Assembly: GCA_009777345.1 (NCBI GenBank)
Contig: WRMB01000006.1
Span: 25,286 to 89,285, forward strand
Length of the DNA stretch: 64,000 bases
Source: Micrococcales bacterium
GTDB taxonomy: Bacteria; Actinomycetota; Actinomycetes; Actinomycetales; Cellulomonadaceae
Reading direction: 5' to 3'
In this document: positions 8,408 through 55,033 of the stretch, piece after piece
How the letters are laid out: each line of letters starts with the position of its first letter
Position numbering within the stretch: position 1 is the first letter of the stretch
The notes under the pieces: generated by a model
What the model saw: only the letters and a program-made list of their open reading frames with translations
The model's database searches: none
Told to the model about the DNA's origin: nothing
Made by a program: the position numbers and the translations under genes

Positions 8408-10054
8408 ATGGTGTTGCCCCGTGGACGGCTGCGGCCCGAGCATCCGTCCACCCGCACCCTCGTCGAGCTCGTCGACCGGCTCGCCCCGTCCCTCGTCCTG
8501 CCGACGCCGGACCGCGGCGACACCCGGATCAGCGGTGTGGCCATGGCGTCGGGGGAGGTCGCGCCCGGCGACCTGTTCGTCGCCGCGCCGGGAGCCCACC
8601 ACCACGGGGCGCGGTTCGCCGCCGACGCGGCCGCGGCCGGGGCGGTCGCGGTGCTCACCGACGCCGAGGGCGCCGACTTCGTAGCCGGGCTGCCCGGGAC
8701 GGACCGGCTGGTCGTGCTCGTCGCCGACGATCCCCGCGCCCTGGCCGGTCCGGTGGCCGACTGGGTGTACGGGCACCCGTCGGGCCGTCTGGTCACCGTC
8801 GGGGTGACCGGGACCAACGGCAAGACGACGACGGCCTGGTTCGTGGACGCGGCGCTGCGGGCGGTGCACCGGCTGACCGCGTCGCTGGGCACGGTCGAGC
8901 TGCGGATCGGTGACGAAGCGGTTGAGAGCCCCCGGACGACCGTGGAGGCGCCGGTGCTGCACGGTATCGCCGCGCTGGCCGTCGAGCGGGGCGCGGCCAG
9001 CCTGGTCACCGAGGTGTCGTCGCACGCCCTGGCCCTGGGTCGGGTGCGGGGGCTGCGGTTCGACGTCGTGGGGTTCACCAACCTCCAGCGCGACCACCTG
9101 GACTTCCACCACGACATGGACGGTTACTTCGCGGCCAAGGCCCAGCTGTTCACCGCTGAGCAGGCCCGGCGCGGTGTCGTCGTCGTGGACGACGAGTGGG
9201 GCCAGCGCCTGGCGCGGGAGGCGGCCATTCCGGTGGAGACCCTCAGCACCCACCCCGACGACCGTCAGGCGGCCGACTGGACCGTCGTCGAGGCCGATAT
9301 CGGTCTGGACGGGGTGGGGTCCCGGTTCGTCCTGGTCGGCCCCGACGGGGTGCGGCACGAGGCTTTCTCGCCGCTGCCCGGGCTGGTCAACGTGTCCAAC
9401 GCGGCCACCGCGATCGTCCTGGCCGTGGCTGCGGGGGTGCCGCTGGGCACCGCCGTCGCGGCGGTCGGCGGCGCGGGGTCCGTGCCCGGCCGGATGGAGC
9501 GGGTCGTAGAGCGCGGCCAGGGCCTGCCCCTGGGCCTGGTGGACTACGCGCACACGCCCGACGCCCTGGTGCTGGCGCTGGAGGCGGTGCGGCCGATCAC
9601 CCCGGGACGGCTGATCGTCGTGCTGGGGTCGGACGGTGACCGAGACCAGGGCAAGCGCCCCATCATGGGTCAGATCGCCGCCCGGCTGGCCGACGAGGTG
9701 TTCGTCACCGACGAGAACCCGCGCTCGGAGGACCCGGCGGCGATCCGCGCTGCGGTCCTGGCAGGCGCGACAGCAGTAACCGGGGCTATCGTGCACGAGG
9801 TCACGACCAGCCGGGCGGACGCTGTCCGCCAGGCCGTCGCCGGGGCCGACGAGTCAGATACCGTGATCGTCACCGGCAAGGGCCACGAACCGACACAGGA
9901 GATCGCCGGGGTGTTCCACCGTTACAACGACCGTGACGTGCTCGCCGCGCTCCTGGCCGAGCACCAGTCCCAAGACCAGGCTCAAGACAAGGCTCAAGAC
10001 AAGGCTCAAGACAAGGCTCAAGACAAGGCTCAAGACAAGGCAGAGCGGGCATGA
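8408..10054 (+). CDS. murE: UDP-MurNAc-dipeptide:amino acid ligase MurE
   Basis: GVTGTNGKTT, EVSSHAL, TNLQRDHLDFH, VPGRME, VDYAHTPD, DENPRSE, GKGHE. True start ATG 8408 lies inside ORF 7313..10054. Confidence 0.95.
   Translation: MVLPRGRLRPEHPSTRTLVELVDRLAPSLVLPTPDRGDTRISGVAMASGEVAPGDLFVAAPGAHHHGARFAADAAAAGAVAVLTDAEGADFVAGLPGTDRLVVLVADDPRALAGPVADWVYGHPSGRLVTVGVTGTNGKTTTAWFVDAALRAVHRLTASLGTVELRIGDEAVESPRTTVEAPVLHGIAALAVERGAASLVTEVSSHALALGRVRGLRFDVVGFTNLQRDHLDFHHDMDGYFAAKAQLFTAEQARRGVVVVDDEWGQRLAREAAIPVETLSTHPDDRQAADWTVVEADIGLDGVGSRFVLVGPDGVRHEAFSPLPGLVNVSNAATAIVLAVAAGVPLGTAVAAVGGAGSVPGRMERVVERGQGLPLGLVDYAHTPDALVLALEAVRPITPGRLIVVLGSDGDRDQGKRPIMGQIAARLADEVFVTDENPRSEDPAAIRAAVLAGATAVTGAIVHEVTTSRADAVRQAVAGADESDTVIVTGKGHEPTQEIAGVFHRYNDRDVLAALLAEHQSQDQAQDKAQDKAQDKAQDKAQDKAERA
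9971..10042 (+). repeat. 12-bp in-frame tandem repeat (CAAGACAAGGCT x6) at the murE 3' end
   Basis: Four perfect copies plus two single-mismatch copies; encodes QDQA(QDKA)5. Confidence 0.95.
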
Positions 10055-11535
10055 CGGCACTCACCGTGGGCCAGGTCGCCGCGGCGACGGGCGGTCGCCT
10101 CGTCCACGTGGCACCGGCGAGCGTCGTCGACGGTCCGGTCGTCACCGACTCGCGGCAGGTCGGACCAGGGTCGCTGTTCGTGGCGCTCACCGGCGAGCAC
10201 GCCGACGGCCTGGACTACGCCGCCACGGCGGTGGCCTCCGGTGCCGTGGCGGTGCTCGCCGACCGGGAGCCGTCCGGACCGGACGGTCCGCTGCCTGCGG
10301 TCGTCGTGCCGGACACCACCGCGGCGCTGGGACGGCTGGCCCAGGCTGTCCTGGCCGACCTGCGGGAGGCCGCGGCCGGACCGGGCGGGTCCGGGCGGCG
10401 CGTCGTCGCCGTGACCGGGTCGGTCGGCAAGACCACGACCAAAGACCTGCTGGCCCAGGTGCTCGGCGCGGCCGGGCCGACGGTCGCCCCGGTCCGGTCC
10501 TTCAACAACGAGATCGGCCTGCCGCTGACGGTGCTGACGGCCGACGCCCAGACCCGCTACCTGGTGCTGGAGATGGGGGCCAGCGCGCCCGGCGACCTGG
10601 ACTACCTCACGGGGATCGCCCCGCCGGACGTGGCGGTGGTGCTGGCGGTCGGTCAGGCTCACCTCGGCGGGTTCGGCGGCAGCCTGGACGATGTCGCCCG
10701 GGCCAAGTCCGAGCTGGTGACCGGCCTGGCGCCCGGCGGGGTGGCGGTGCTCAACGCCGACGACCCCCGGGTCGCGGCCATGGCCGACCTGGCGCCCGGC
10801 GAGGTGGTGCGGTTCGGCTTCGCCGACACGGCCCAGGTGCGGGCGCAGGGACTGCGCCTGGAACGCGGCCGGGCGGCGTTCACCCTGGCCGTCGACCTGC
10901 CCGGCCGGGCGGTCGGTTCGGCCGAGGTGCGGCTGCGCCTGGTCGGTGAGCACCACGTGCACAACGCGCTGGCCACCGCCGCGGCGGCGCTGGTGGCGGG
11001 CCTGGACCTGGATACCGTGGCCGCGGCTCTGAGCACCGCGGACATCCGCTCGCCCCACCGGATGCACGTGGTGGACCGGCCCGACGGGGTGACGGTGGTG
11101 GACGACTCGTACAACGCCAACCCCGACTCGATGCGGGCCGCGCTCAAGGCCCTGGCGTTGCTGGCCCGTCCGGACGGCCGGTCGGTGGCGGTGCTCGGCG
11201 AGATGCTGGAGCTGGGCGATGCCTCGCTGACCGCCCACGACGCGATCGGGCGGCTGGCGGTGCGGCTGGACATCGCGCTGACCGTCGTCGTCGGGGCCGG
11301 GGCGCACCCGATCGCCACGGGCGCGGCGCACGAGGGCTCCTGGGGTGACGAGGTCGTGGAGGTTCCCGACGTGGACGCCGCGGCGGCCTTGCTGCGCGAC
11401 GAGCTGCGGCCCGGGGACGTGGTGCTGGTCAAGTCGTCCTACGGCTCCGGGCTGTGGCGGCTGGGCGACCGGCTGATCGCCGAGGGCCGGTTGCCCGACG
11501 GCCAGGACGCCGACCCGGACGGGGTGCTGACGTGA
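10051..11535 (+). CDS. murF: D-Ala-D-Ala adding enzyme MurF
   Basis: [51 protein letters not shown]. Confidence 0.95.
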
Positions 11536-12623
11536 GGGCGCTGCTCATCGCCGGGGCGGTCTCGATGATCGTCTCGCTGTTCGGCACGCCGCTGTTCATC
11601 CGGCTGCTGGTGCGCAAGCAGTACGGCCAGTTCATCCGTCAGGACGGACCGACCAGCCACCAGACCAAGCGGGGCACCCCGACGATGGGTGGCGTCGTCA
11701 TCATCGGGGCGACGCTGGTCGGCTGGGTGGTCGCCCTGCTGCTGACCCGGACGACACCGTCAGCCTCGGCGCTGCTGGCGCTGTTCTTGATGGTCGGTCT
11801 GGGCTTCGTCGGGTTCCTCGACGACTACATCAAGATCTCCCGGCAGCGCAGCCTGGGCCTGTCGCCCTGGGCGAAGATCATCGGGCAGGGCGTCGTCGGG
11901 GTGACCTTCGCGGTGCTCGCCCTGCAGTTCCCCAACGAACGGCACCGCTACCCGGCGTCCACCCAGATATCGTTCATCCGGGACACGAAGTTCGACCTGT
12001 CCGACGCGAAGCTCTTCGGGCTCGGGCTCGGGCTGCTGCTGTTCGTCATCTGGGCGAACTTCCTCATCACGGCCTGGTCGAACGCGGTCAACCTGACCGA
12101 CGGGCTGGACGGGCTGGCCACCGGCGCCTCGCTCATCGTGTTCGGCGCGTACGTGCTGCTCGGGGTGTGGCAGAACAACCAGACCTGCCAGCTGATCGAG
12201 ACGGCCGGGCCCCGGTGCTACGAGACCCGCGACCCGATGTCCTTGGCGATGGTGGCCATCGCGATCACCGGGGCGCTGTTCGGCTTCCTGTGGTGGAACG
12301 CCAGCCCGGCGCAGATCTTCATGGGCGACACCGGGTCGCTGGCGCTGGGCGGGGCGCTGGCGGCGCTGTCGATCCTCACCCGCACCGAGCTGCTGGCCGC
12401 GATCATCGGCGGACTGTTCGTGCTGGTGGTGCTGTCCGACGTCATCCAGATCGGCTGGTTCAAGGCGACCCGGAGACGGGTGTTCAAGATGGCGCCGCTG
12501 CACCATCATTTCGAGCTGTCCGGCTGGGGCGAGGTGACGATCGTCATACGGTTCTGGATCATCGCCGGGCTGTGCGTCGCCGTGGGGATCGGGGCGTTCT
12601 ACGCCGAGTGGGTAGCAGGCTAG
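11532..12623 (+). CDS. mraY: Phospho-MurNAc-pentapeptide transferase MraY
   Basis: [52 protein letters not shown]. Confidence 0.97.
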
Positions 12624-14131
12624 TGACTCCGGTGGAGCCAGGGCCGGGTCGGCCGCGGCTGATGGGCGCGCCGGTGCTCGTCGCCGGACTGGGCACGTCA
12701 GGCCGCGCGGCCGCGGCGACGCTGCGGAAGGTCGGCGCGCTGGTGACCACCTACGACGACCGGGCCGAGGATGCCGACCGCCACCACCCCGACGAGGTCG
12801 ACCCGACCGCGTTCCGTCTGGTCGTGACCTCGCCGGGGCTGCCGCCGCACCACCGGCTGCTGGCCGCGGCGGCCGGTCGGGTCGAGGTGGTCTCGGAGGT
12901 CGAGCTGGCCTGGCGGCTGCGGGTCGACCGGGGCGACGGGCGCGGCCCGGCCCCCTGGTTGGCGGTGACCGGTACCAACGGCAAGACCACGACGGTGGGC
13001 ATGCTCGCCGCGATCCTGGAAGCGGCGGGGGAGCGGGTGGCGCTGGTCGGCAACGTCGGCACCCCGGTGGTCGAGGCGGCCGTCGACCCGGCGTGGGACG
13101 TGCTCGCGGTCGAGCTGTCCAGCTTCCAGCTGCACTTCACCACGTCCCTGGCCGTCGAGGCCGGTGCGGTCCTCAACGTCGCCCCCGACCACCTGGACTG
13201 GCACGGGTCCATGGCCGAGTACGCCGCGGACAAGGCCAGGATCTGGCACGGTGCGGAGACCGTCGTCTACGACGTCGACGACCCAGCCACCGTGCAGCTC
13301 GCCCTCGACCGAGGGCTGCGGACGGCCCGCGAGCGCCTTCAGCACCATCAGCACCTGGTGGCGAGCGGCGTCCGGCCGCAGCAGTCGACAGGTTTCACCC
13401 TGGGGTCGCCCGACTGCGGTGAGTACGGGGTGGTCGACGGAGCGCTCGTCGCGGCGGCCAGCGAGGAGCTGATCGAGATAGCGCGGGTCGCCGACCTGGC
13501 TCACCTGGTCGGCCCTGGTCAGCAGGTCCCACCGCACCTGGTGGCCGACGCCCTCGCCGCCGCGGCGCTCGCCCTGGCCCACCACGGGGTCGGGTCGGTC
13601 CACGACGGTCCCAGCTTCGCTCACGTCCGGGCCGGGCTGCGGGCCTACCGCCCCTCAGGGCACCGGATCGCCACCGTCGCACAGCTCGGCGAGGTGTCGT
13701 TCGTCGACGACTCCAAGGCCACCAACGCGCACGCCGCGGCGGCGTCGCTGGCCGGGTTCGCGGCCGGGTCGGTGGTGTGGGTCGCCGGGGGCCTGGCCAA
13801 GGGGGCGACCTTCGACGAGCTGGTCGCGGCCCAGGCCGACCGGCTGCGGGCCGTCGTCCTGATCGGCACCGACCGGAGCCCGTGGCGCGGCGCGCTGGCC
13901 CGACACGCGCCCCAGGTCCCCGTGATCGAGGTGGACGACAGCGAGACTGGGACGGTGATGCCCCGTGCCGTCGCCGCGGCCCACCGGATGGCTTCCGACC
14001 CTGCCCTGGGGTCGGGCCCGGTGGTCGTGCTGCTCGCACCGGCGTCCGCGTCGATGGACCAGTTCGCGTCCTATGCCGACCGCGGAGACCGGTTCGCCCA
14101 GGCAGCGCGCGCGCTGGCACACCAGACGTGA
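12623..14131 (+). CDS. murD: D-glutamate ligase MurD
   Basis: VLVAGLGTSG, VTGTNGKTT, VELSSFQL, LNVAPDHLDWH, DDSKATN, LLAPASASMDQF. Confidence 0.95.
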   Translation: MTPVEPGPGRPRLMGAPVLVAGLGTSGRAAAATLRKVGALVTTYDDRAEDADRHHPDEVDPTAFRLVVTSPGLPPHHRLLAAAAGRVEVVSEVELAWRLRVDRGDGRGPAPWLAVTGTNGKTTTVGMLAAILEAAGERVALVGNVGTPVVEAAVDPAWDVLAVELSSFQLHFTTSLAVEAGAVLNVAPDHLDWHGSMAEYAADKARIWHGAETVVYDVDDPATVQLALDRGLRTARERLQHHQHLVASGVRPQQSTGFTLGSPDCGEYGVVDGALVAAASEELIEIARVADLAHLVGPGQQVPPHLVADALAAAALALAHHGVGSVHDGPSFAHVRAGLRAYRPSGHRIATVAQLGEVSFVDDSKATNAHAAAASLAGFAAGSVVWVAGGLAKGATFDELVAAQADRLRAVVLIGTDRSPWRGALARHAPQVPVIEVDDSETGTVMPRAVAAAHRMASDPALGSGPVVVLLAPASASMDQFASYADRGDRFAQAARALAHQT

Positions 14132-15501
14132 GTGCCCCGGGGCGGACCCGCGCCCCCCGGGACGCACCGGCGGGTGCCCAGGCGCGGGCGTCCAGGGACA
14201 CGACGGGGCAGGCCGTCCGCGACCCGGCAGCCCAGCGTCGGTCGACGGGCGCTGTGCTGCGCTCCGCCGCGGCTCGCCGGTTCAGGGCCGCCTGGGCCGG
14301 TCCGCTGACCACGTACTACCTGCTCGTCGGGTCGACGGCGCTGCTGCTGGTGCTGGGCCTGGTCATGGTGCTGTCGTCGTCGTCGGTGGACTCGATCGTG
14401 CGCGGTGGGTCGCCCTACGCTGCTTTTCTCGACCAGACGAAGTATGCGCTCGTCATCGGGCTGCCGGTGATGCTCCTGGCGACCCGGATGACGACCGCCT
14501 GGCAGGCCCACCTGGCCTGGTTCGCCCTGGTCGCCGCGCTGGTGTTCCAGTCGGCGGTGTTCGTGCCGGGTATCGGCTGCGGATCGGGCGGGAACCAGAA
14601 CTGGGTGTGCCTGCCCGGTTTTTCCGCCCAGCCGTCGGAGGCGGTCAAGCTGGCCCTGGCGCTGTGGCTCGGGGTGGTGCTGGCACGCAAGCAGCCCCTG
14701 CTCGGCCAGGTCAGGCACGTCGTGGTGCCGGGTCTGCTCGGGGCGGGGGTGGCGATCAGCGCGGTCCTGGCGGGCAAGGACCTGGGGACGACGCTGGTGC
14801 TGGGGCTGCTGGTGGCCGGGGCGTTGTTCGTCGCCGGGGTGCCGATGTGGATGTTCGGCACGGGCGGTGCGCTGGGGGCGCTGGGGGTGGCGCTGTTCAT
14901 CGCCTCGCAGCCGGATTCCAACCGGGCGCAGCGGATCGAGAACTGGCTGGGGGGGTGCACCGACTCCGCCGGGCTGTGCTTCCAGCCCAAACACGGGACG
15001 TGGGCGCTGGCCAGCGGCGGGTTCTTCGGGCTGGGGCTGGGGGAGTCGCGGCAGAAGTGGTCGTACCTGCCCGCGGCGCACAACGACTTCATCTTCGCGA
15101 TCATCGGCGAAGAGCTGGGTCTGGCCGGGACGCTGCTGGTGCTGGGCCTGTTCGCGGTGCTGGCCGTGGCGATGCTGCGGCTGGTGCGCTACCACCCCGA
15201 ACCGTCGGCCCGGATTACTACTGCTGGCATCTTCGCCTGGGTCATCGGGCAGGCCCTGATCAACATCGCGGTGGTGCTGCGCCTGGCCCCGGTGGTCGGG
15301 GTGCCGCTGCCGCTGGTCTCCGCCGGGGGGTCGGCGCTGATCATGACGATGGTCGCTCTGGGCGTGGTCATCTCCTACGCCCGGTCCGACCCGCAGGCCG
15401 CCGCGGCGCTGGCCGCCCAGCCCGGGGTGCTGCGCCGGTCCATCGCGGTGCTGGGCCGGTCCTCGTCGGTCGGTAGATCTCGGAGGTCTCGTCGTGGCTG
15501 A
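14128..15501 (+). CDS. ftsW: SEDS peptidoglycan polymerase FtsW
   Basis: QPSEAVK, GKDLG, ALASGGFFGLGLG, YLPAAHNDFIFAIIGEELG, GVPLPLVSAGGS. Confidence 0.95.
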   Translation: MSAPGRTRAPRDAPAGAQARASRDTTGQAVRDPAAQRRSTGAVLRSAAARRFRAAWAGPLTTYYLLVGSTALLLVLGLVMVLSSSSVDSIVRGGSPYAAFLDQTKYALVIGLPVMLLATRMTTAWQAHLAWFALVAALVFQSAVFVPGIGCGSGGNQNWVCLPGFSAQPSEAVKLALALWLGVVLARKQPLLGQVRHVVVPGLLGAGVAISAVLAGKDLGTTLVLGLLVAGALFVAGVPMWMFGTGGALGALGVALFIASQPDSNRAQRIENWLGGCTDSAGLCFQPKHGTWALASGGFFGLGLGESRQKWSYLPAAHNDFIFAIIGEELGLAGTLLVLGLFAVLAVAMLRLVRYHPEPSARITTAGIFAWVIGQALINIAVVLRLAPVVGVPLPLVSAGGSALIMTMVALGVVISYARSDPQAAAALAAQPGVLRRSIAVLGRSSSVGRSRRSRRG

Positions 15502-16663: not shown

Positions 16664-18192
16664 CAGGACCCGACAGCCTGACGAACTCCGGCCCCGCCGA
16701 TCCGGTCGCGGCGCTGGGCCGGGTCCACCTGGTCGGGGTGGGCGGGGTCGGCATGTCCGCGATCGCGACGCTGCTGGCCGCGCGGGGTGCGAGCGTGTCT
16801 GGCTCCGACGCCCACGACGGCCCGGCGCTGGCCGCGCTGCGTGCCGCCGGGGTGGACGTGCGGGTGGGGCACGACGCGGCGGCCGTCGCCGGGGCCGACA
16901 CCGTCGTGGTGTCGTCCGCGGTGCGCGAGACCAACCCCGAGCTGGCGGCGGCCCGGGCCCAGGGGCGGCGGGTGCTGCACCGGTCCCAGGCGCTGGCCGC
17001 GCTGATGGCCGGACGCACCAGCATCGCCGTGGCCGGGGCGCACGGCAAGACGACGACCTCGGCGATGATCGCCGTGGGTCTGCTGCACGCCGGGGCGGAC
17101 CCGTCGTTCGCCATCGGCGGGGTGGTCCGGGACGACACCGGCCCCTTGGGGGGAGCCCGCGACGGGTCCGGACCGTTCGTGGCCGAGGCCGACGAGTCGG
17201 ACGGCTCGTTCCTGGCCTACACCCCGCAGGTCGCCGTGGTCACCAACGTCGAGCCGGACCACCTGGACCACTACGGCACCGCCGAGGCCTTCGAGCAGGC
17301 CTTCGTCGACTTTGCCGGTCGGATCACCGACCCGGTGCGGCTGCTCGTCTGGTGCGCTGACGACCCCGGTGCGGCGCGCCTGAACGCTGCCCTGAGTCGA
17401 GCGCGGCGCGTCGACGGCGCCGTTCCAGGGCCCTGGACGATCGCCTACGGTGCCGGTCAGGCTGGTACCTGGGACCGCCCGCCGTCCGGTGCTGATATCA
17501 CCGTCGGCCCCGTCGAACCCGACGACGACGGCTGGTCGGTCCGGCTGACCGACCTGGCTGGACGTTTCGGCTGGCCGCCGCTGCCAGACGGCCACGACGG
17601 CTCGGCCGACAGCGCGACGGTCCGGGTGCGGCTGCCCGCCCCTGGTGACCACAACGCCCTGAACGCGGCTGCGGCGTGGGCGGTGCTGTGCGCCCTGGGG
17701 ACCGAACCGCAGGCCGCCGCCGCGGCCCTGAGCCGTTTCCGTGGTACCGGACGCCGTTTCGAGGACCGCGGCACCGCCGCGGGGGTGCGGGTGGTGGACG
17801 ACTACGCCCACCACCCCACCGAGGTCGCGGCGCTGCTGCGCGCCGCCCGGGCGGTGGCCGGTACGGGCCGGGTGCTGGTGCTGTTCCAGCCCCACCTGTT
17901 CTCCCGGACCAAGCAGTTCGCCACCGAGTTCGGCCAGGCGCTGGACCTGGCCGACACCGTCGTGGTCACCGCGGTGTACGCCGCCCGCGAAGACCCGGAC
18001 CCGCTGGTCAGCGGGCAGATGCTGGTCGACGCGGTGCCGACCGCCGACAAGGCCGACTACGTCGCCGACCGCGCGCAGGCCGCGCACACCATCGCGGCCG
18101 CGGCCCGCCCCGGCGACCTGGTCCTGACCGTAGGCGCTGGCGACGTCACCGAGCTGGGCCCAGTGATCCTGGCCGACCTGGCCCGCCGGTGA
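16660..18192 (+). CDS. murC: UDP-MurNAc:L-Ala ligase MurC
   Basis: HLVGVGGVGMS, AGAHGKTTT, EADESDGSF, NVEPDHLD, DDYAHHPTE, FQPHLFSRT. Confidence 0.96.
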   Translation: MTGPDSLTNSGPADPVAALGRVHLVGVGGVGMSAIATLLAARGASVSGSDAHDGPALAALRAAGVDVRVGHDAAAVAGADTVVVSSAVRETNPELAAARAQGRRVLHRSQALAALMAGRTSIAVAGAHGKTTTSAMIAVGLLHAGADPSFAIGGVVRDDTGPLGGARDGSGPFVAEADESDGSFLAYTPQVAVVTNVEPDHLDHYGTAEAFEQAFVDFAGRITDPVRLLVWCADDPGAARLNAALSRARRVDGAVPGPWTIAYGAGQAGTWDRPPSGADITVGPVEPDDDGWSVRLTDLAGRFGWPPLPDGHDGSADSATVRVRLPAPGDHNALNAAAAWAVLCALGTEPQAAAAALSRFRGTGRRFEDRGTAAGVRVVDDYAHHPTEVAALLRAARAVAGTGRVLVLFQPHLFSRTKQFATEFGQALDLADTVVVTAVYAAREDPDPLVSGQMLVDAVPTADKADYVADRAQAAHTIAAAARPGDLVLTVGAGDVTELGPVILADLARR

Positions 18193-47665: not shown

Positions 47666-47720
47666 TCGATGACCGAGGTCTCGGACGCGACCTCTTGCGG
47701 GAGTGCTGGAAGGTAGTGCG

Positions 47721-48503
47721 ATGAACAGCGTGGCGAACATGCAGCCCTCCTCGCCCGACGGGCTCGTGGTGGCGATCGACGGGCCGTCGGGGTCCGGCAA
47801 GTCCTCGGTGGCCAGGGGGGTGGCGCAGGCCTTCGGTCTGGCGTACCTGGACACCGGGGCGATGTACCGGGCGGCGACCTGGTGGTGCCGGGAGCAGGGC
47901 GTGAACCTCGACGACGGTCCCCGCGTGGCCGCCGTGGTGGCCGCCATGCCTCTGGTGGTGGGCCTGGACCCGTCCGCGCCGAGCGTGCACGTCTCCGGGG
48001 TGGACGTCGGTGGGGCGATCCGCCGTTCGGAGGTTTCCGCCGCGGTCAGCCAGGTGGCGACCAACCTGGACGTGCGGGCCGGTCTGGTGGCCCGGCAGCA
48101 GGCCGTGGTGGCCGCCGAGCGTGTCGGCGGGTTCTCCGACGGCCGGGGCGTCGTGGTCGAGGGCCGGGACATCACCACGGTCGTGGTGCCTGATGCCCAG
48201 GTGCGGGTGCTGCTCACCGCGTCGCCCGCGGCCCGCCTGGCGCGGCGCGCCACCGAGGTGCACGGCAACGCCTCGGCCCAGGCGGTCGCCGCCACCCGGG
48301 ACCAGGTGCTGCGCCGCGACGCGGACGACTCCACGGTGGTCGAGTTCCACCAGGCCGCCCCGGGCGTGGCCACGGTGGACTCCACGGACCTGGACCTGGA
48401 CCAGACGGTGGCCGCGGTCCTGGGCCTGGTGGTCGAGGCCACAGGACTGGACGTGCCGACCGAGGCCGGTGGGCCGGACGTCCCTCCGGCCGGGCAGCCG
48501 TGA
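47721..48503 (+). CDS. cmk: Cytidylate kinase
   Basis: IDGPSGSGKSS, LDTGAMYRA, VEGRDI, RRDADDS. Confidence 0.96.
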   Translation: MNSVANMQPSSPDGLVVAIDGPSGSGKSSVARGVAQAFGLAYLDTGAMYRAATWWCREQGVNLDDGPRVAAVVAAMPLVVGLDPSAPSVHVSGVDVGGAIRRSEVSAAVSQVATNLDVRAGLVARQQAVVAAERVGGFSDGRGVVVEGRDITTVVVPDAQVRVLLTASPAARLARRATEVHGNASAQAVAATRDQVLRRDADDSTVVEFHQAAPGVATVDSTDLDLDQTVAAVLGLVVEATGLDVPTEAGGPDVPPAGQP

Positions 48504-49186
48504 GCGCGCCGCAGGCCCCGAGCCGCTGGGGGCCGGTGTGGGCGCGCTGGGTGGGCTGGTTCATGCTCCGGGTGGTGTGGCGGGCCCGTCCGGTCGGCAA
48601 GGACCGCGTGCCGCGGACCGGCCCGGTGGTGCTCGCCGCGAACCACGTGCACTGGCTGGACGGCCCGATGCTCATCGGGCTGGCCCCGCGTCCGTTGCAC
48701 ATCCTGGTCAAGCAGGAGATGTTCCACGGTTTCCTCGGTCTGGTGATGCGCGCCGCGGCGCAGATCAAGACGGACCGCTCCAACGGTCGCCAGGCCCTGG
48801 CGCAGGGCCTGGCGGTGCTGCGGCGCGGGGGAGCGGTCGGTATCTTCCCCGAGGGCGAGCGCGGCTCCGGCAAGGTCGAGTCCGCCCGGGCAGGCGCCGC
48901 GTGGCTGGCGGTCCACGGCGGTGCGCGCGTCGTCCCCGTGGCGATCCTCGGCACCCGTCGCCCTGGTCAGGGCAAGGACCAGATGCCCCCGCCGGGCCGC
49001 CGTTTCGTCATCGAGTTCGGCGAGCCGATCGACGTGACCCGCGACGACGTCCCCCGCCGCGAGGCCGTCGCCGAGGCGGCCGAGACCATCCGCGCCGCGA
49101 TGGCCGCCCTGGTCGCCGAGGCGTCCGGACGCACCGGTCTGGGTACCGGCGCCGACTCGGCGCCCGGCCCGACGACCTTGGACTGA
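48500..49186 (+). CDS. Lysophospholipid acyltransferase (PlsC family)
   Basis: NHVHWLD (HxxxxD), IFPEGER, VVPV. Confidence 0.9.
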   Translation: MSAPQAPSRWGPVWARWVGWFMLRVVWRARPVGKDRVPRTGPVVLAANHVHWLDGPMLIGLAPRPLHILVKQEMFHGFLGLVMRAAAQIKTDRSNGRQALAQGLAVLRRGGAVGIFPEGERGSGKVESARAGAAWLAVHGGARVVPVAILGTRRPGQGKDQMPPPGRRFVIEFGEPIDVTRDDVPRREAVAEAAETIRAAMAALVAEASGRTGLGTGADSAPGPTTLD

Positions 49187-49234
49187 ACTTGACTAGACCA
49201 GATTAGGACGCCTAGAATCTAGTCTGACCAGATT
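49186..49234 (+). promoter_or_regulatory. Sigma70-type promoter and operator repeats of the phd-vapC operon
   Basis: TTGACT(49189)-N18-TAGAAT(49213). Near-palindrome AATCTAGTC-T-GACCAGATT (49216-49234). Half-site GACCAGATT is repeated at 49196. Confidence 0.7.
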
Positions 49235-49251
49235 GAGCAAGGAGGTGTCGG

Positions 49252-49512
49252 ATGCATGCCGACGCTGTGAGCGTCTACGAGGCGAAGACCAACCTGTCCA
49301 GGCTCATCGCTCAGGCCAAGGCCGGATTCCCCTTCGTCATCACCAGCCACGGCAAGCCGCAGGTGATCGTCCAGGCGGTTGACGCAGGCCAGGCGGAGCG
49401 CAAGCCGCAGCGGACAGGGTTTCTCAAGGACGAGCTCAAGGATTTCCGGCTGCCCGACGATTTTGATACGATGATGCAGGACGAGATCATCTCCCTGTTC
49501 GAAGGGGACTGA
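49252..49512 (+). CDS. Phd/YefM family antitoxin
   Basis: VSVYEAKTNLSRLIAQAKAG..FVITSHGKPQ, C-terminal PDDFD; RBS AAGGAGG. Confidence 0.9.
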   Translation: MHADAVSVYEAKTNLSRLIAQAKAGFPFVITSHGKPQVIVQAVDAGQAERKPQRTGFLKDELKDFRLPDDFDTMMQDEIISLFEGD

Positions 49513-49522
49513 GGGGGCGCAC

Positions 49523-49909
49523 GTGGATCTTCTGCTCGACTCAAACATCATCATCCTTGCCGCCGGGGGTAGCCTGTCAGAGGACGTCACGGCGCTGGTC
49601 GAGTCCGAGCACAATCGACTCTTCTTCAGCACCGCGGCCTACTGGGAGATCTCCATAAAGTACGCCAGCGGACGGCTTGCACTCCCGATCGAGCCGTGGC
49701 TGCTCGTCGACGCCCTTGTGAAGAACGGATACCGTGAGGTCCCGATAGGACGCAAGCACGTCTACACGCTCAGCAGCATCGCCGATGTTCACAAGGATCC
49801 GTTCGACAGGATCATGGTGGCTCAGGCCATCGCTGAAGACATGCTGCTCCTCACCACTGACGCTCTCCTGCACGGCTACGGCCAGAACGTGAGAGTCGTC
49901 AGAAAATGA
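49523..49909 (+). CDS. vapC: VapC/PIN-domain toxin
   Basis: LLLDSNII, YWEISIK, HKDPFDRIMVAQA...LLTTD. Confidence 0.92.
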   Translation: MDLLLDSNIIILAAGGSLSEDVTALVESEHNRLFFSTAAYWEISIKYASGRLALPIEPWLLVDALVKNGYREVPIGRKHVYTLSSIADVHKDPFDRIMVAQAIAEDMLLLTTDALLHGYGQNVRVVRK

Positions 49910-50014
49910 GACCAATTCCTGGGGTGACGGTGACGAGAAAGTGATCGTGATCGGATGCCGCGGCGGCACACTGCGGTCGTCCCGCCCGGATCATCATGCC
50001 TAGTGATCGCCTGG

Positions 50015-50821
50015 TCAACTCCAGTCGAAGGTGAGTGCGGCGGTACGAGTCTCGGGTTCGAAGAACAGCAGGATCTGGTCGGCGCCTTGGTTCCGCCAGG
50101 GGTATCCGGCGGTGCCTCCGATGTAGGTGAACGGTCGGCCGTCGGCCAGCCGGAGCACCGGAGCTGCCGGATCGCTCGAGTCCAGCGCGAATGCTTTGGG
50201 CGGAGGGAACTCATGCCAGTTGCCGTAGCCGGGCTCACCGCCTATCTCGTCGACGAGGGCGATATCGGTGCCCCAGCTTTCGCGCTGCCGGGTGGGATCC
50301 TGCGCGTCGCCCCAGACCAGGGCACCGAGCCGCTCCCAGCGTGCCTTGGTGCCTGTGAACTCGGCGTCGGCTGCGGCGTATGTCTCGTACAGCGCACTCG
50401 GGTCTTCTTGCTCACCCGACGCTTCCATGTCCTCGATCTCGAAGAACCGCCGCTGCCCGAGGAACCGGTAGCGGCCGTCGTTCTCGACGTGGAACGAGAT
50501 CCAGTTCTCGCAGGCGAAGTCGTCGTGGTGCGCGGAAGTGTCCTCGCCCAGCAGGCCCTCCTCGGGCTCTACAGGGCTCAGCAGGTGCACACGGCCGCTC
50601 CACGCCGGGTCGAACGCGGTCAGTTCGACAGAGACGAGCGGATGAAGCAGTCGGACGAGCCACGGCTGGTCGTCGACGAACACCTCGGCGGGATCAGGCA
50701 GCACGACGACCCGCGGGTCCGGGGCGATGATGCGCTCGCCGTCGTCAGGGTCACGCACCGGTTCCGCGAGCAGGTGCTGAGGGAGAGGATAGGGGCGGGC
50801 ATCCGCAGCGAATTCATCCAC
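50015..50821 (-). CDS. Conserved hypothetical acidic protein
   Basis: Coding part of ORF 50015..51073 from GTG 50821: LHPLVSVEL...WSGRVHLLSPVEP.EG...ENWISF...RYRFLG...GEPGYGNW...TFDWS. No function recognised. Confidence 0.65.
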   Translation of the reverse strand: MDEFAADARPYPLPQHLLAEPVRDPDDGERIIAPDPRVVVLPDPAEVFVDDQPWLVRLLHPLVSVELTAFDPAWSGRVHLLSPVEPEEGLLGEDTSAHHDDFACENWISFHVENDGRYRFLGQRRFFEIEDMEASGEQEDPSALYETYAAADAEFTGTKARWERLGALVWGDAQDPTRQRESWGTDIALVDEIGGEPGYGNWHEFPPPKAFALDSSDPAAPVLRLADGRPFTYIGGTAGYPWRNQGADQILLFFEPETRTAALTFDWS

Positions 50822-51137
50822 CGCGCCGATCCTACCTTGTGAGGACGCGAGACTACCGCGGCTCGACGATGTCGCATACGGCCTCCGGGAACAGCTTGCC
50901 GACGGTCGTGGCCGACGCGACCGCAGCACGACCCGAGACCTCGCCGAGGGCGTCCTGGGACAACCCGGTCTGAACCTTGCTGGCTTGGCCCTCCTGAAGA
51001 GACGCCGGAGCATCGAGGGGCGGCACGCCGGGCCGCAGCAGGGGCCACCGTGGGACACGTTGTGGTCCCACACCGAAGCATTATGTGAGTCTCGTCGGAC
51101 CCTCGCACCACAGCCGCACCGAGGTTATACTGAGTTC

Positions 51138-52190
51138 ATGGTATTAAGACCGATGAAGCGCGTTCCCACTCTCGACGGACTCGACCTCTACCGGCGGATC
51201 GACTCGCCCCGCACGGACCAGGCCGTGAACGACCCGGAACGGGTGGATGCGGTTGTCAAGGAGTTGCGGCAAGGCGTAACTGAGGCACTGGCAACGCCGA
51301 CGACGGTACAGGGCTGGCGCGCACAAGCATTGTTCGCGTCGATGGTGGTGGCACTGGACGGCTGCACGATGATGACGCAGGTAGATTTGGGAGAAATATT
51401 TGCAGACGGCGACCCGGTAAAGGCACCAGACTTCTTTTTGCACTTGCGCGACGGTAGGCGAATTCTTGTAGATGTTAAGAGTCTGCCGAAGTCCATAAAG
51501 GATCCCGTCAAGTTCACAAAGAGTGAGGTGGCCCGACTCCGGCGGTTTGGAGAGTTGTACGGAGCGGAAGTCCACCTAGCCCTGTACTTCTCCAGCATGT
51601 CGATGTGGCTTCTAATATCGATCGACGACCTGTCTCCTGGACCAGGAGGTGGCCTCCGGATCACTATGGAGAAAGCGTTGATGCGCAACGACATGGCCGC
51701 TATCAGTGACTGGACCATCGGCGTAGAGCCGCCGTTGGAGTTGGTACTCCATCCAGACCCTTCATCAGAAAACCGAATCACCGAAGATGGTCGCGCGGAA
51801 TTTAGGGTGGGGAGTGTAGAGGTCCGCGCTGGTGGTCGCAGGGTATACACCAAGGAGGACCAGCAGATTGTATGGTTCCTGATGATGTATGGTAAATGGA
51901 GCCAATCGGAGCATCTGCGCATAGAGGGGTCAAAACTGGTAAGCCTGACGTGGCGCGCCGAGCCGGAGGAGCGCGAAAATCTAGATCAGCGCTTTGAACT
52001 AGTCGGGTCTCTAGCATCAATGTACACGCAGTTTTTCGAGATCGGCACGAGGGGTGATGCGGGGATAATCGGACTGGACCTTCCCACGGAACCCGGGGCG
52101 ATGATCTCACTGATTCCCCATGACTATCATTCCGACGACCTACCGTTGTGGCGTTTTAGAATCGCACCTAGGACAGACCTTCCGAAATGA
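51138..52190 (+). CDS. Stand-alone PD-(D/E)xK nuclease-fold protein
   Basis: APDFFLHLRDGRRILVDVK (PD...DxK) in the N-terminal half; lower GC; TATACT at 51126-51131, 6 nt before the ATG (leaderless-type). Confidence 0.7.
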   Translation: MVLRPMKRVPTLDGLDLYRRIDSPRTDQAVNDPERVDAVVKELRQGVTEALATPTTVQGWRAQALFASMVVALDGCTMMTQVDLGEIFADGDPVKAPDFFLHLRDGRRILVDVKSLPKSIKDPVKFTKSEVARLRRFGELYGAEVHLALYFSSMSMWLLISIDDLSPGPGGGLRITMEKALMRNDMAAISDWTIGVEPPLELVLHPDPSSENRITEDGRAEFRVGSVEVRAGGRRVYTKEDQQIVWFLMMYGKWSQSEHLRIEGSKLVSLTWRAEPEERENLDQRFELVGSLASMYTQFFEIGTRGDAGIIGLDLPTEPGAMISLIPHDYHSDDLPLWRFRIAPRTDLPK

Positions 52191-52238
52191 GCACATAACC
52201 GGGACTGGATGCTACTACGCCCAGGGCCCTCGTCATGC

Positions 52239-52440
52239 CTACCGTCCCACCCTTACATCCGGCGGCTCCGGCGGCAGCAACGCCTCGACCGTCGTGCCGA
52301 GCACCTGCGCCAGGGGCGACGAGGTTCAGCAGCGTGGGGTTGGCGACGCGGCCGACGCGAGACTCGCCCTTCTCCAACTGGTGGTAGTAGCCCCGGGTCA
52401 GGCCAGCGGCATGGGCAACCTTCTCTTGGCTGAGGTCGGC
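52239..52440 (-). pseudogene. XRE-family HTH regulator remnant (5'-truncated, +1 frameshift)
   Basis: My translation ADLSQEKVAHAAGLTRGYYHQLEKGESRVGRVANPTLLNLVA / LAQVLGTTVEALLP. An extra C in GCCCCTG shifts the frame. Confidence 0.7.
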
Positions 52441-52916
52441 CTCACACCCAGTACCGAGCCGACCACACCGGACGCCAACTGATGAACCAAGCCGTTTTCG
52501 AAGCCATCTGGATCGGCGACGACAACATCGACGCTGCTCGAGTCCGACCAGGACTGGCCGAGTTGATCAGCACCGACCTGGACCAGCAGTTGGCCCACGA
52601 CGAAGCCGAGGCAGCCCAGTCCCGAGCCAGCGGACGAAGGTCGGGCGCGCTGACATGAGCACCGAACGAGCCAGAGGTCGCGCCGAGCGAGGCACGCGTT
52701 GCGTCCCATCGCACCTCGTCGCTGCCAGCGTCGGAACCGACACGTTGGCCGCCGAACTGGGCTTCCAGCCCGAGCAGACCGACCAACCGACCGCCGAGCA
52801 CGCGACCAACCTCTACGTCGCTCATCTCCTGCGTCACCGCAGGTCAGAGCGCATCCCGGGACACGAACAGAACCTCCGGCGCAGTCGGCGTGCCGGAGGT
52901 TCTAACAAGACAGTTC
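52440..52916 (+). pseudogene. C-terminal remnant of a large serine recombinase
   Basis: PHTQYRADHTGRQLMNQAVFEAIWIGDDNI (typical recombinase tail). After a frame change it continues ...GGSNKTVLVGLAGFEPAT, reading into the tRNA as tRNA-targeting recombinases commonly do. Confidence 0.65.
52870..52902 (-). terminator. Hairpin downstream of tRNA-Pro
   Basis: GAACCTCCGGC / GCCGGAGGTTC 11-bp stem with an 11-nt loop. Confidence 0.55.
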
Positions 52917-52993
<77 letters not shown>

Positions 52994-53080
52994 TGGTGCA
53001 CCGGTGGCCCGGCACGGCCAGCAACTCTACCGTGTCCTGGACCGTGGTGGCGACGTCTTATCCGGTCCGCGTGGCGGAGG

Positions 53081-53512
53081 TCACCCGGTGACGACCGGCT
53101 TGCCTGCCTGGGTCCAGGCGAGGATGCCGCCGGAGAGGTCGACGACGCGGATGAACCCGGCGTCGAGCATCATCTGCCTGGCGGTGGCGGAGCGCACACC
53201 AGAGCGGCAGTACAGGGCGTAGGTGGTGTTCTTGTCCAGGCCAGCGATGCCAGCGGCGAAGTCGCTCTGGACGTCGAGGCTCGTCGCGCCTGCCAGGTGA
53301 CCGGTGGCGAACTCGTCGGGGGTGCGCACGTCGATGATCTGCACCCCGTCCTGGGCGACCAGGGACTCGAAGCCGGCCACGCCGAGGCTGGTGGCGGTCT
53401 CGGAGACCGGACTGGTGTCGGTGCTGGTGCCGTCGTCCGAGCAGCCGACCAGCAGACCCGCACTCAGCAGCCCGACCATCATCACCGAGCCGAGCCGTCG
53501 TAGAGATCCCAT
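53081..53512 (-). CDS. Rhodanese-domain lipoprotein
   Basis: Lipobox LVGC; IIDVRTPDEFATGHLAGA; YCRSGVRS active-site loop. Confidence 0.88.
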   Translation of the reverse strand: MGSLRRLGSVMMVGLLSAGLLVGCSDDGTSTDTSPVSETATSLGVAGFESLVAQDGVQIIDVRTPDEFATGHLAGATSLDVQSDFAAGIAGLDKNTTYALYCRSGVRSATARQMMLDAGFIRVVDLSGGILAWTQAGKPVVTG

Positions 53513-53566
53513 GGGCCCAAGCCTACGGACCCGCGCCGACCAGACGTCACCAACCCGGGGGCTGGC

Positions 53567-55033
53567 TCAGCGACGCCGTCGCTCCCGGACGCGGACGCCC
53601 AGGCGGATCGGGGTGCCCTCGAAGCCGAAGGTCTCGCGCAGGCGGCGTTCGACGAAGCGGCGGTAGCCGGGGTCCAGGAACCCGGTGGTGAACAGCACGA
53701 TACGCGGCGGTCGGGTCGACGCCTGGGTGGCGAACAGGACGCGCGGCTGCTTGCCGCCCCGCACCGGGTGCGGATGGGCGGCGACCAGCTGGCCCAGGAA
53801 GGCGTTGAGGCGGCCGGTGGAGATCCGGGTGTCCCACGACGCCAGCGAGCGTTCCAGGGCGGGGACCAATCGGTCGGCGTGCCAGCCGGTACGCGCGGAG
53901 ACGTTCACCCGGGGCGCCCAGCGCACCTGGCCCAGGTCTTGCTCGATCTCGCGTTCCAGGAGGGTCCGACGGTCGGCGTCGGTGAGGTCCCACTTGTTGT
54001 ACGCCAGTACCAGGGCCCGGCCCGCGTCGACGACCTGGGTGATCACCCGGACGTCCTGCACGGTCAGCGGCTCGGCGGCGTCCAGCAGCACCACCGCGAC
54101 CTCGGCCTTCTCGATGGCGGCCGTGGTGCGCAGCGAAGCGTAGTAGTCGGCGCCGGACGTCATGTGCACCCGACGACGGATACCGGCGGTGTCCACCATG
54201 ACCCACGGCTGCCCGCCGAGCACCACCAGCTCGTCGACCGGGTCTCGGGTGGTCCCCGGGACGTCGTGGACCACGACCCGTTCCGACCCGGCCAGTCGGT
54301 TGAGCAGCGACGACTTGCCGACGTTCGGCCGTCCCACCAGGGCCACCCGGCGCGGGCCGTCCGGCCGCAGCGCGTCGCGCGCCGAGACCTCCGGCAGCAC
54401 CGCCAGCGCCGCGTCCAGCAGGTCGCCGATGCCCCGGCCGTGCACCGCGGAGACCGCGTAGGGCTCTCCCAGGCCCAGGCCCCACAAGGCGAGCGCGTCG
54501 GACTCCTGCGACGGACCGTCCACCTTGTTCGCGGCCAGCACCACCGGGCGGCCGGAGCGGCGCAGCATGCGCACCACCTGCTCGTCGGTGTCGGTGGTGC
54601 CGACGGTGGCGTCCACCACGAGCACCACGGCGTCAGCCAGCTCCACGGCGATCTCCGCCTGCTCGGCGACGCGTGCGTCGATCCCCGCGACGTCCACCTC
54701 CCAGCCACCGGTGTCCACGACGGTGAACTGCCGCCCCGCCCACTCCGCCGGGTAGCTCACCCGGTCCCGGGTGACACCGGGGGTGTCCTGCACGACCGCC
54801 TCCCGACGGCCCAGGATCCGGTTCACCAGGGTCGACTTGCCGACGTTCGGCCGTCCGACGACGGCCAGCACCGGGTGCGCCAGGGACGGCCCCGCCTCAG
54901 GGGCAGCCTCGTCGACGTCCAGCAGGGACAGGTCGTCGTCAGCCAGGTCGTAGTCGGCCAGGCCCGCACGCAGCGCGGAGGCCCACGCCTCGTCGTCGTC
55001 GGGCGGGACGGTCGGCATCTCGGTCACGCGCAC
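53567..55033 (-). CDS. der: Ribosome biogenesis GTPase Der (EngA)
   Basis: Two G-domains ([20 protein letters not shown]), DTGG/DTAG, NKVD/NKWD, KH-like C-terminus. Confidence 0.97.

Follow-up and report, generated by a model that had tools for sequence, protein, structure and literature searches.

A predicted Hjc-type nuclease with an additional C-terminal domain, a candidate single-gene defence on a genomic island in Cellulomonadaceae

The Holliday-junction resolvase Hjc (PF01870; PDB 2wcw, 2eo0, 1hh1, 1gef) is a stand-alone dimer of 120-140 amino acids (aa) found in archaea and their viruses, and cores of the Hjc type work on duplex or branched DNA in dimeric form. Solitary, modification-dependent restriction enzymes of type IV or type IIM, such as Mrr, DpnI and PvuRts1I, combine a nuclease and a second domain in one polypeptide, have no methyltransferase, and are mobile and patchily distributed. 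In the DREN-APAZ protein of the short-Argonaute systems SPARDA (PDB 9qcc, 9jsz) an N-terminal PD-(D/E)xK nuclease is followed by a C-terminal domain. The gene considered here, P0001, shares features with each of these. It lies in a 64,000-nucleotide stretch of contig WRMB01000006.1 (positions 25,286 to 89,285) from a Micrococcales bacterium of the Cellulomonadaceae (assembly GCA_009777345.1), and the whole of this stretch is referred to as the window. The middle region of the 350-aa product is, on the structure model, an Hjc-type PD-(D/E)xK nuclease with the fold and motif of the superfamily and with its predicted catalytic residues intact. P0001 is read here, with moderate confidence, as a self-contained and mobile predicted DNA endonuclease whose most likely role is to defend, as a single gene, against phages or other DNA that invades the cell.

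The catalytic motif consists of P97-D98, 13 residues and D112-V113-K114, as the first-pass annotation had read it (PD-x13-DVK). In an alignment of 137 diverse members of the family, which have a mean identity of 29%, F66, D98, W157 and W254 are invariant, and D83, G85, E/D112, V113, K114, G190, D191 and P199 are kept in at least 90% of the members. P0001 retains all of these residues. D98, D112 and K114 presumably form a metal-dependent phosphodiesterase site, and D83 is an additional conserved acidic residue of the family. The AlphaFold2 (AF2) model of the protein, built from a 28-sequence alignment, has a pLDDT of 91.5 and a pTM of 0.88. It contains two N-terminal helices (residues 1-53), an alpha-beta-beta-beta-alpha-beta-beta core (54-185) and a mixed alpha/beta C-terminal region (186-350). 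A Foldseek search of the PDB placed the core with A. fulgidus Hjc at E 1e-6 with a TM-score of up to 0.80 (target-normalised); the probability was 1.0 for both Hjc and RecU, of which RecU was the weaker match. A profile of the family retrieved S. tokodaii Hjc (ST1444) from the PDB sequences at E 9e-6, placing LVdVK over LIEVK with about 70 further residues similar; Hjc was the only PDB match of the profile searches. The BFVD viral structures that matched P0001 were only small resolvases and nucleases.

The core that P0001 shares with Hjc has the order alpha-beta-beta-beta-alpha-beta. The Hjc motif, D followed by 13-14 residues and (E/D)-V-K, aligns residue for residue with that of P0001, and the likeness runs on through the next helix and two strands. 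The first-helix glutamate of Hjc, however, is not evident in the P0001 family, where E/D82-D83-x-G85 is conserved in a loop instead. Unlike Hjc, the protein is 350 aa long with a 53-aa helical N-terminal extension and a 165-aa extra domain, and it is bacterial, rare and mobile. It also falls below the cut-offs of Pfam PF01870 and NCBIfam NF040854; the NCBIfam search gave only a sub-threshold Hjc match (E 3e-4, 20.6 bits against a cut-off of 70). No model in Pfam, PHROG or PADLOC matched P0001. When the 137 members were compared with Pfam singly, the recurrent matches were all below threshold and were to Hjc (15 members, best E 1e-4) and DUF790 (7 members).

The C-terminal domain had been described as about 190 residues of no recognisable fold. 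The second part of that description held in searches by sequence and by fold; the length did not, since the Hjc-like core extends to about residue 185 and leaves about 165 aa (residues 186-350). The domain sequence has zero matches in Pfam, PHROG and PADLOC, and hidden Markov model (HMM) profiles run against the PDB sequences also returned nothing. Structure prediction and a Foldseek search of the PDB with this domain by itself gave nothing significant (best E 0.17, TM-score no higher than 0.24). A fold that reads modified bases, such as SRA or the Mrr_N winged helix, was not found in it by sequence or by structure. Modelled alone from ten sequences, residues 186-350 have a pLDDT of 67; residues 7-92 of the fragment are well predicted and the last 70 or so lose confidence. 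This loss suggests that the tail rests against the nuclease domain when the protein is complete. In the 137-member alignment the C-terminal domain has few conserved charged residues, so a second catalytic site is unlikely.

P0001 resembles Mrr, DpnI and PvuRts1I in its general organisation. Unlike theirs, its second domain is neither a winged helix nor SRA-like in Foldseek and HMM searches, in which DpnI appeared only at E 0.07. The PADLOC model mREase_IV did not match P0001 and did not match consistently among the 137 members. The resemblance to DREN-APAZ came from a full-length Foldseek match at E 2e-3, in which the two C-terminal domains are of comparable size; the root-mean-square deviation is 22-28 Å and the TM-score about 0.26. 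This candidate was rejected, because the C-terminal domain alone does not retrieve APAZ and the hit therefore stems from the nuclease domain. No Argonaute-like or Piwi-like gene adjoins P0001 or its homologues in the loci inspected. A search of PADLOC-DB v2.0.0 with P0001 and five homologues gave no family at E values up to 1, and no family was consistent among the 137 members. The PADLOC model REase_II, for restriction endonucleases of type II, did not match P0001, and single family members matched it weakly (E 0.02-0.05). By these searches P0001, which would work like a solitary nuclease of the restriction type, is not placed in Hjc proper, in type II restriction-modification, in the known type IV families, in SPARDA or in the PADLOC families. 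By sequence it belongs to an unnamed family and is a homologue of an E. coli cluster that has already been predicted and is uncharacterised.

That cluster is represented by WP_024176454.1, which aligns with P0001 over 323 of its 350 aa at 28% identity (E 2e-48), covering both domains. It is also the protein annotated in the E. coli prophage loci examined below. Table S10 of the DefensePredictor study ('Predictions for 3,000 E. coli strains', sheet 'uncharacterized_clusters') lists it as a 'Putative novel defense gene' with a mean log-odds of 9.27 (range 8.4-10.3) and predicted_defensive TRUE, where the stringent cut-off is a log-odds of 4 (Science 2026, PMC13092281). The same table marks it neither as a defence homologue nor as a defence-system protein, and gives a type III restriction endonuclease as its best HHblits match (24% query coverage, probability 61) with none by Foldseek (PMC13092281). 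In that study 45% of 94 cloned predictions protected, validation increased with log-odds, and PD-(D/E)xK nucleases were the commonest domain among the newly validated systems (PMC13092281). Like P0001, WP_024176454.1 is a solo gene of equal length and a homologue over its full extent. It differs in being an E. coli prophage gene and an unnamed machine prediction, and the actinobacterial branch with its leaderless promoter is not covered there. Main-text literature searches, whether on phage names, on accessions or on 'Hjc' combined with defence terms, returned nothing on the family. The first-pass annotation had proposed an undescribed abortive-infection or modification-dependent restriction protein, either of which may apply. 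'Undescribed' holds in part: the family is unnamed, but it had already been flagged in a supplementary table (PMC13092281).

The genes around the homologues give a second line of evidence. As had been claimed for P0001, the nuclease gene is a solo unit, because the neighbours from six homologue loci share no similarity with one another (all-against-all BLASTP) or with the window (tblastn), so that no partner gene is conserved. What recurs instead is the type of neighbour. On a Rhizobium plasmid the homologue is followed by GajB (E 1e-227) and GajA (E 6e-213), with a GIY-YIG nuclease, an integrase and a Phd/VapC pair upstream. In E. coli the adjoining FRG protein is the PADLOC candidate PDC-S15 (E 7e-99), and on a Yersinia plasmid the adjoining ATPase is PDC-S06 (E 7e-156), with DUF4145 close by. 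On MOBH plasmids the homologue lies amid DUF4365, an Mrr-like restriction endonuclease (PDC-S02 / mREase_IV) and a UvrD-like helicase, and on a Burkholderia plasmid amid DUF4435, PLD, PIN and RES proteins and an integrase. In the actinobacterial loci the genes within 8 kb include Vsr, a type II methyltransferase, NucC-like, PD-T7-4/mad3-like and PDC-S68 proteins and an Aga_REase-like giant protein; these loci also contain ScoMcrA, HEPN, an integrase and a TrwC relaxase. Homologues are therefore recurrently found beside known or candidate defence genes in unrelated genomes, with Gabija (GajA/GajB), PDC-S15, PDC-S06 and an Aga_REase-like gene directly adjoining. This is a qualitative defence-island signal. 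No TnsB, TnsC or other transposition genes stand beside the homologues in the inspected loci, and matches of the family to the Tn7 endonuclease TnsA were weak (E 0.07-0.1).

Two of these neighbourhoods have details of their own. The Phd/VapC pair near the Rhizobium plasmid homologue (L019, 3263-3885) does not recur in the other loci. L005 comes from an actinobacterial genome of metagenomic origin. Its homologue has a tyrosine integrase on one side and, on the other, a convergent gene bearing a weak N6_N4 methyltransferase signature, and a HATPase_c protein and a 606-aa protein come next (9263-10621, - strand; 11452-15344, + strand). The L005 genes are the likely source of the MTase_II (E 5e-72) and mad3/PD-T7-4-like matches seen when the neighbours were pooled for PADLOC, and this neighbourhood may be a separate multi-gene defence system.

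The family is rare, patchy and mobile; its carriers are conjugative plasmids, the ends of prophages and islands. There are 53 close homologues with 39-62% identity over the full length, from Microbacterium, Frondihabitans, Sanguibacter, Geodermatophilus and metagenomes. When 1.84 billion cluster representatives (50% identity) were searched exhaustively with phmmer, there were 725 clusters at E 1e-3 or below and 218 at 1e-30 or below, nearly all of 340-370 aa and aligned end to end. Those clusters that were looked up are tiny, unnamed metagenomic singletons. From Actinomycetota to Enterobacteria, the whole family conserves both the N-terminal helices and the C-terminal domain of 165 aa. The family was absent from the 24 congeneric species genomes and from 16 genomes of other families of the same order (one genome each), was present in 1 of 400 other Actinomycetota genomes drawn evenly, and was present in 28 of 5426 complete E. 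coli genomes. Homologues with 27-30% identity over 90-99% of the length are carried by 43 plasmids, 34 of which are conjugative; the hosts include Providencia, Proteus and E. coli (MOBH plasmids), as well as Rhizobium, Agrobacterium, Burkholderia, Yersinia, Nocardia and Streptomyces. Among phages, E. coli phage PhiR11_1 and its variant PhiR11_1_star carry a homologue beyond the side-tail-fibre genes. The E. coli copies form a fixed cassette of three genes, namely the FRG-domain protein (PADLOC PDC-S15), the homologue and a hypothetical gene of about 270 aa (L020 7489-11345, L021 7489-11345, L014 2003-5859). Two unrelated prophage types have this cassette at their cargo end, and it is also present in phage PhiR11_1, where it adjoins IS2.

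P0001 itself was noted from the outset as an intact, lower-GC gene of 350 codons, and this description is borne out. The open reading frame (ORF) runs without interruption from the ATG at 51138 to the stop at 52188-52190 on the + strand, with a GC content of 56.1% and a third-position GC content (GC3) of 64%, compared with 74-75% GC and 93% GC3 in the host genes cmk, plsC and der. It is present as a single copy in its own genome. Its composition is foreign, and P0001 is a horizontally acquired cargo gene of the small island beside tRNA-Pro.

The same annotation had pointed to a leaderless-type promoter. The hexamer TATACT ends exactly 6 nt before the ATG at 51138 and no Shine-Dalgarno sequence is present. 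A sigma-70 scan for two hexamers did not call this box, as is expected for an actinobacterial promoter that has only a -10 element. The arrangement was compared across 11 actinobacterial homologue loci, with the starts of L005 and L007 corrected by the conserved N-terminus. In 8 of the 11, TANNNT stands 6-7 nt ahead of the conserved start codon without a Shine-Dalgarno sequence (binomial P about 1e-17 against a local hexamer background of about 0.2% per position); because L009 and L011 are closely related, slightly fewer cases count as independent. A putative leaderless promoter of their own is supported for P0001 and its actinobacterial homologues because this layout recurs across the loci. 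The public gene call for P0001 begins at Met6 and gives 345 aa. The ATG at 51138 is preferred because an N-terminal (M/V)VLxxxxR is conserved in most homologues. The database starts of P0001 and of the homologues in L005 and L007 all fall downstream of (M/V)VL (the stretches concerned are 51138-51152 in the window, 7995-8000 in L005 and 7986-8000 in L007), and gene callers seem to miss leaderless starts in which ATG or GTG comes directly after a TANNNT box.

If P0001 is a defence gene, the protein would act as an Hjc-like dimer, by analogy with Hjc, and would probably cut double-stranded or branched DNA. The C-terminal domain, together with the N-terminal helices, would probably either aim cleavage at some feature of foreign DNA or hold the nuclease off until infection. 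This role is proposed because a solitary nuclease that is apparently constitutively expressed must spare the host chromosome. One version would be a type IV-like recognition of a DNA modification, which is the simplest way to do without a methyltransferase. Another would be activation by infection, or recognition of phage-specific DNA structures such as the branched intermediates of replication or recombination; the Hjc ancestry and the lack of a known reader fold are in keeping with this version. The two versions fit equally. A more far-reaching proposal is that P0001 represents a new single-protein immune system common to Actinomycetota and Proteobacteria, in which a C-terminal domain of unseen fold lets an Hjc-derived nuclease discriminate DNA of a foreign or infected state, for example by branched phage replication intermediates instead of a sequence or methyl mark. 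In that full form the proposal is tentative and rather doubtful.

Several points weigh against a defence role. The closest characterised relatives, Hjc and RecU, are resolvases of DNA repair or phage maturation and not defence enzymes. The defence role is a prediction for every member of the family. Because no known fold of a reader or sensor is seen in the C-terminal domain, the discrimination of self from non-self is a step that we purely infer. The evidence from neighbouring defence genes is qualitative. WP_024176454.1 was outside the 118 cloned transcription units and is absent from Tables S6 and S7, and the protection rate among tested predictions was only 45% (PMC13092281). DefensePredictor also uses genomic context, and its prediction is therefore not fully independent of the neighbourhood argument.

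Solitary nucleases that protect without a methyltransferase need another solution to the problem of self and non-self, and each new one is informative. P0001 is a compact case, a single gene of 350 aa with a confident structure model and an accessory domain without a known fold, and it could reveal a new recognition domain. The homologues in E. coli contexts (prophage PhiR11_1 and the MOBH plasmids) and the actinobacterial branch with its leaderless promoter make the proposal quickly testable. If the protein is not protective, it is another uncharacterised cargo nuclease.

The main alternative is that P0001 is a housekeeping enzyme of mobile elements which resolves junctions in or debranches their own recombination or replication intermediates, like RecU, RusA or T7 endonuclease I, and is not an immune gene. 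The nearest relatives in both fold and sequence are indeed Holliday-junction resolvases, the gene is carried on plasmids and prophages, and on two plasmids par or rep genes lie within a few kb. However, in two unrelated prophage types the gene occupies a cargo position beyond the tail-fibre genes and not a replication or recombination module, and it also occurs in islands that have no phage or plasmid functions, as in the window. A core function would call for a far wider spread among related elements and genomes than the gene has, and the protein is two to three times the size of a resolvase with extra conserved domains. A housekeeping role is therefore considered unlikely.

A further alternative is a selfish or decaying passenger that brings the cell no benefit, such as a homing-type endonuclease, an addiction toxin or an inactive relic. 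Such a passenger could account for the patchy spread and foreign composition, for the degraded island with its truncated XRE gene and for the toxin-antitoxin pair nearby. Against this, the invariant residues are all kept and across hundreds of clusters both domains persist even where identity falls to 25-30%, which argues for purifying selection on the whole protein. The antitoxin-like neighbour is not conserved, and the insertion contexts are unrelated, with no evident homing target. This explanation is improbable.

The PD-(D/E)xK catalytic core would also suit an orphan type II restriction endonuclease that has lost its methyltransferase here or has it encoded at another place in the genome. 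One source labels a homologue 'restriction endonuclease', and L005 has a convergent, probable type II methyltransferase gene (N6_N4_Mtase; pooled-neighbour MTase_II E 5e-72). A methyltransferase is adjacent in only 1 of 15 homologue loci, though, and there is none next to the gene in the window, as first noted. P0001 has no match to PADLOC REase_II, and where single members have one, its E value exceeds 0.01. A type II enzyme without protection would kill its host, yet P0001 is intact and its promoter conserved. This origin is likewise improbable.

It is very improbable that P0001 serves its mobile element in anti-defence or exclusion against the host or rival elements since, although 34 of the 43 plasmid matches are conjugative, prophages carry it too and prophage-end cassettes hold both kinds of function, the adjoining genes are defence genes and not known anti-defence genes and the chromosomal island copies, as in the window, have no transfer machinery.

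Table 1. Positions in the window of P0001, its parts and the other features of the island.
Feature	Position	Strand	Basis
-10-type hexamer TATACT	51126..51131	+	read from sequence; 6 nt before ATG
Intact 350-aa gene P0001, unnamed Hjc-like nuclease family	51138..52190	+	ORF, homologue search, AF2 model
N-terminal helical extension, residues 1-53 (conserved R19, D22, R35)	51138..51296	+	alignment; secondary structure
Hjc-type PD-(D/E)xK nuclease domain (predicted), residues 54-185	51297..51692	+	Foldseek, family profile
Codon of predicted catalytic D98 (PD motif)	51429..51431	+	invariant, 137 homologues
Codons of D112-V113-K114, (D/E)xK motif, aligned with E-V-K of Hjc	51471..51479	+	profile, alignment
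Family-specific C-terminal domain, residues 186-350	51693..52187	+	conserved G190, D191, P199, W254; no fold match
Phd/YefM antitoxin (49252-49512) and PIN/VapC toxin (49523-49909), intact pair, left end of island	49252..49909	+	Pfam E 1e-8, 3e-9
Conserved hypothetical gene, divergent from the nuclease gene, not its partner	50015..50821	-	72 homologues; absent from nuclease-homologue loci
XRE-type HTH gene remnant, N-terminally truncated	52213..52440	-	HTH_3 profile positions 9-35 of 55, E 5e-5
Repeat of about 90 nt with perfect 13-bp hairpin, directly 3' of tRNA-Pro(GGG)	52826..52916	.	six-frame search, alignment, fold
tRNA-Pro(GGG), right border of low-GC island	52917..52993	-	ARAGORN; 95% identical in congeners

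The island (Table 1) is a low-GC block of about 3.7 kb that extends from the end of plsC (49186) to tRNA-Pro(GGG). The divergent hypothetical gene has a GC3 of 81% and no Pfam match. Its homologues are found in Actinomycetota and Burkholderia, and one of them carries the UniRef name 'DUF1963 domain-containing'. The longest version of its ORF reaches 51073 and has an N-terminus rich in Arg, Pro and Ser that is probably untranslated.

The first-pass annotation had placed P0001 next to wrecked XRE and recombinase genes at a tRNA integration site. The XRE gene is indeed a remnant with a partial HTH_3 domain. The recombinase was rejected, since neither Pfam nor a tblastn search of 50,697 phage records gave a match for the + strand frames at 52482-52951, and their last 90 nt or so are the genomic repeat of Table 1, which explains an ORF that appeared to read into the tRNA. 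The tRNA-Pro(GGG) is present and forms the right border of the island; a simple insertion there was not upheld. Five complete congeneric genomes (compared over loci L024-L031) have tRNA-Pro, der, plsC and cmk in that order, and der, plsC and cmk share a strand. In the window (47703-55033) the block from der to tRNA-Pro is inverted with respect to cmk-plsC, the gene order is split, and the low-GC island lies at the junction. The possibility of an empty tRNA site in the congeners was therefore discarded, as the locus is rearranged rather than filled. No convincing att-type direct repeats of the tRNA end flank the island. In the congeners, none of the 7 kb on the far side of the tRNA matches the window, which marks this as a variable site within the genus.

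The repeat has hairpin arms AGAACCTCCGG...CCGGAGGTTCT and a fold of -42.9 kcal/mol (z -3.0). There are about four full or partial copies in the genome, which a six-frame search returned as the best relatives of the supposed recombinase tail. Candidate identities are a tRNA terminator, a small mobile repeat and an att-related sequence. The copies outside the window are at 17071-17156, 11280-11356 (- strand) and 9338-9375 of contig C2 of the same assembly (G000); among them, one is directly 3' of tRNA-Val(TAC), and the neighbourhood of a low-GC membrane-protein gene holds further ones.

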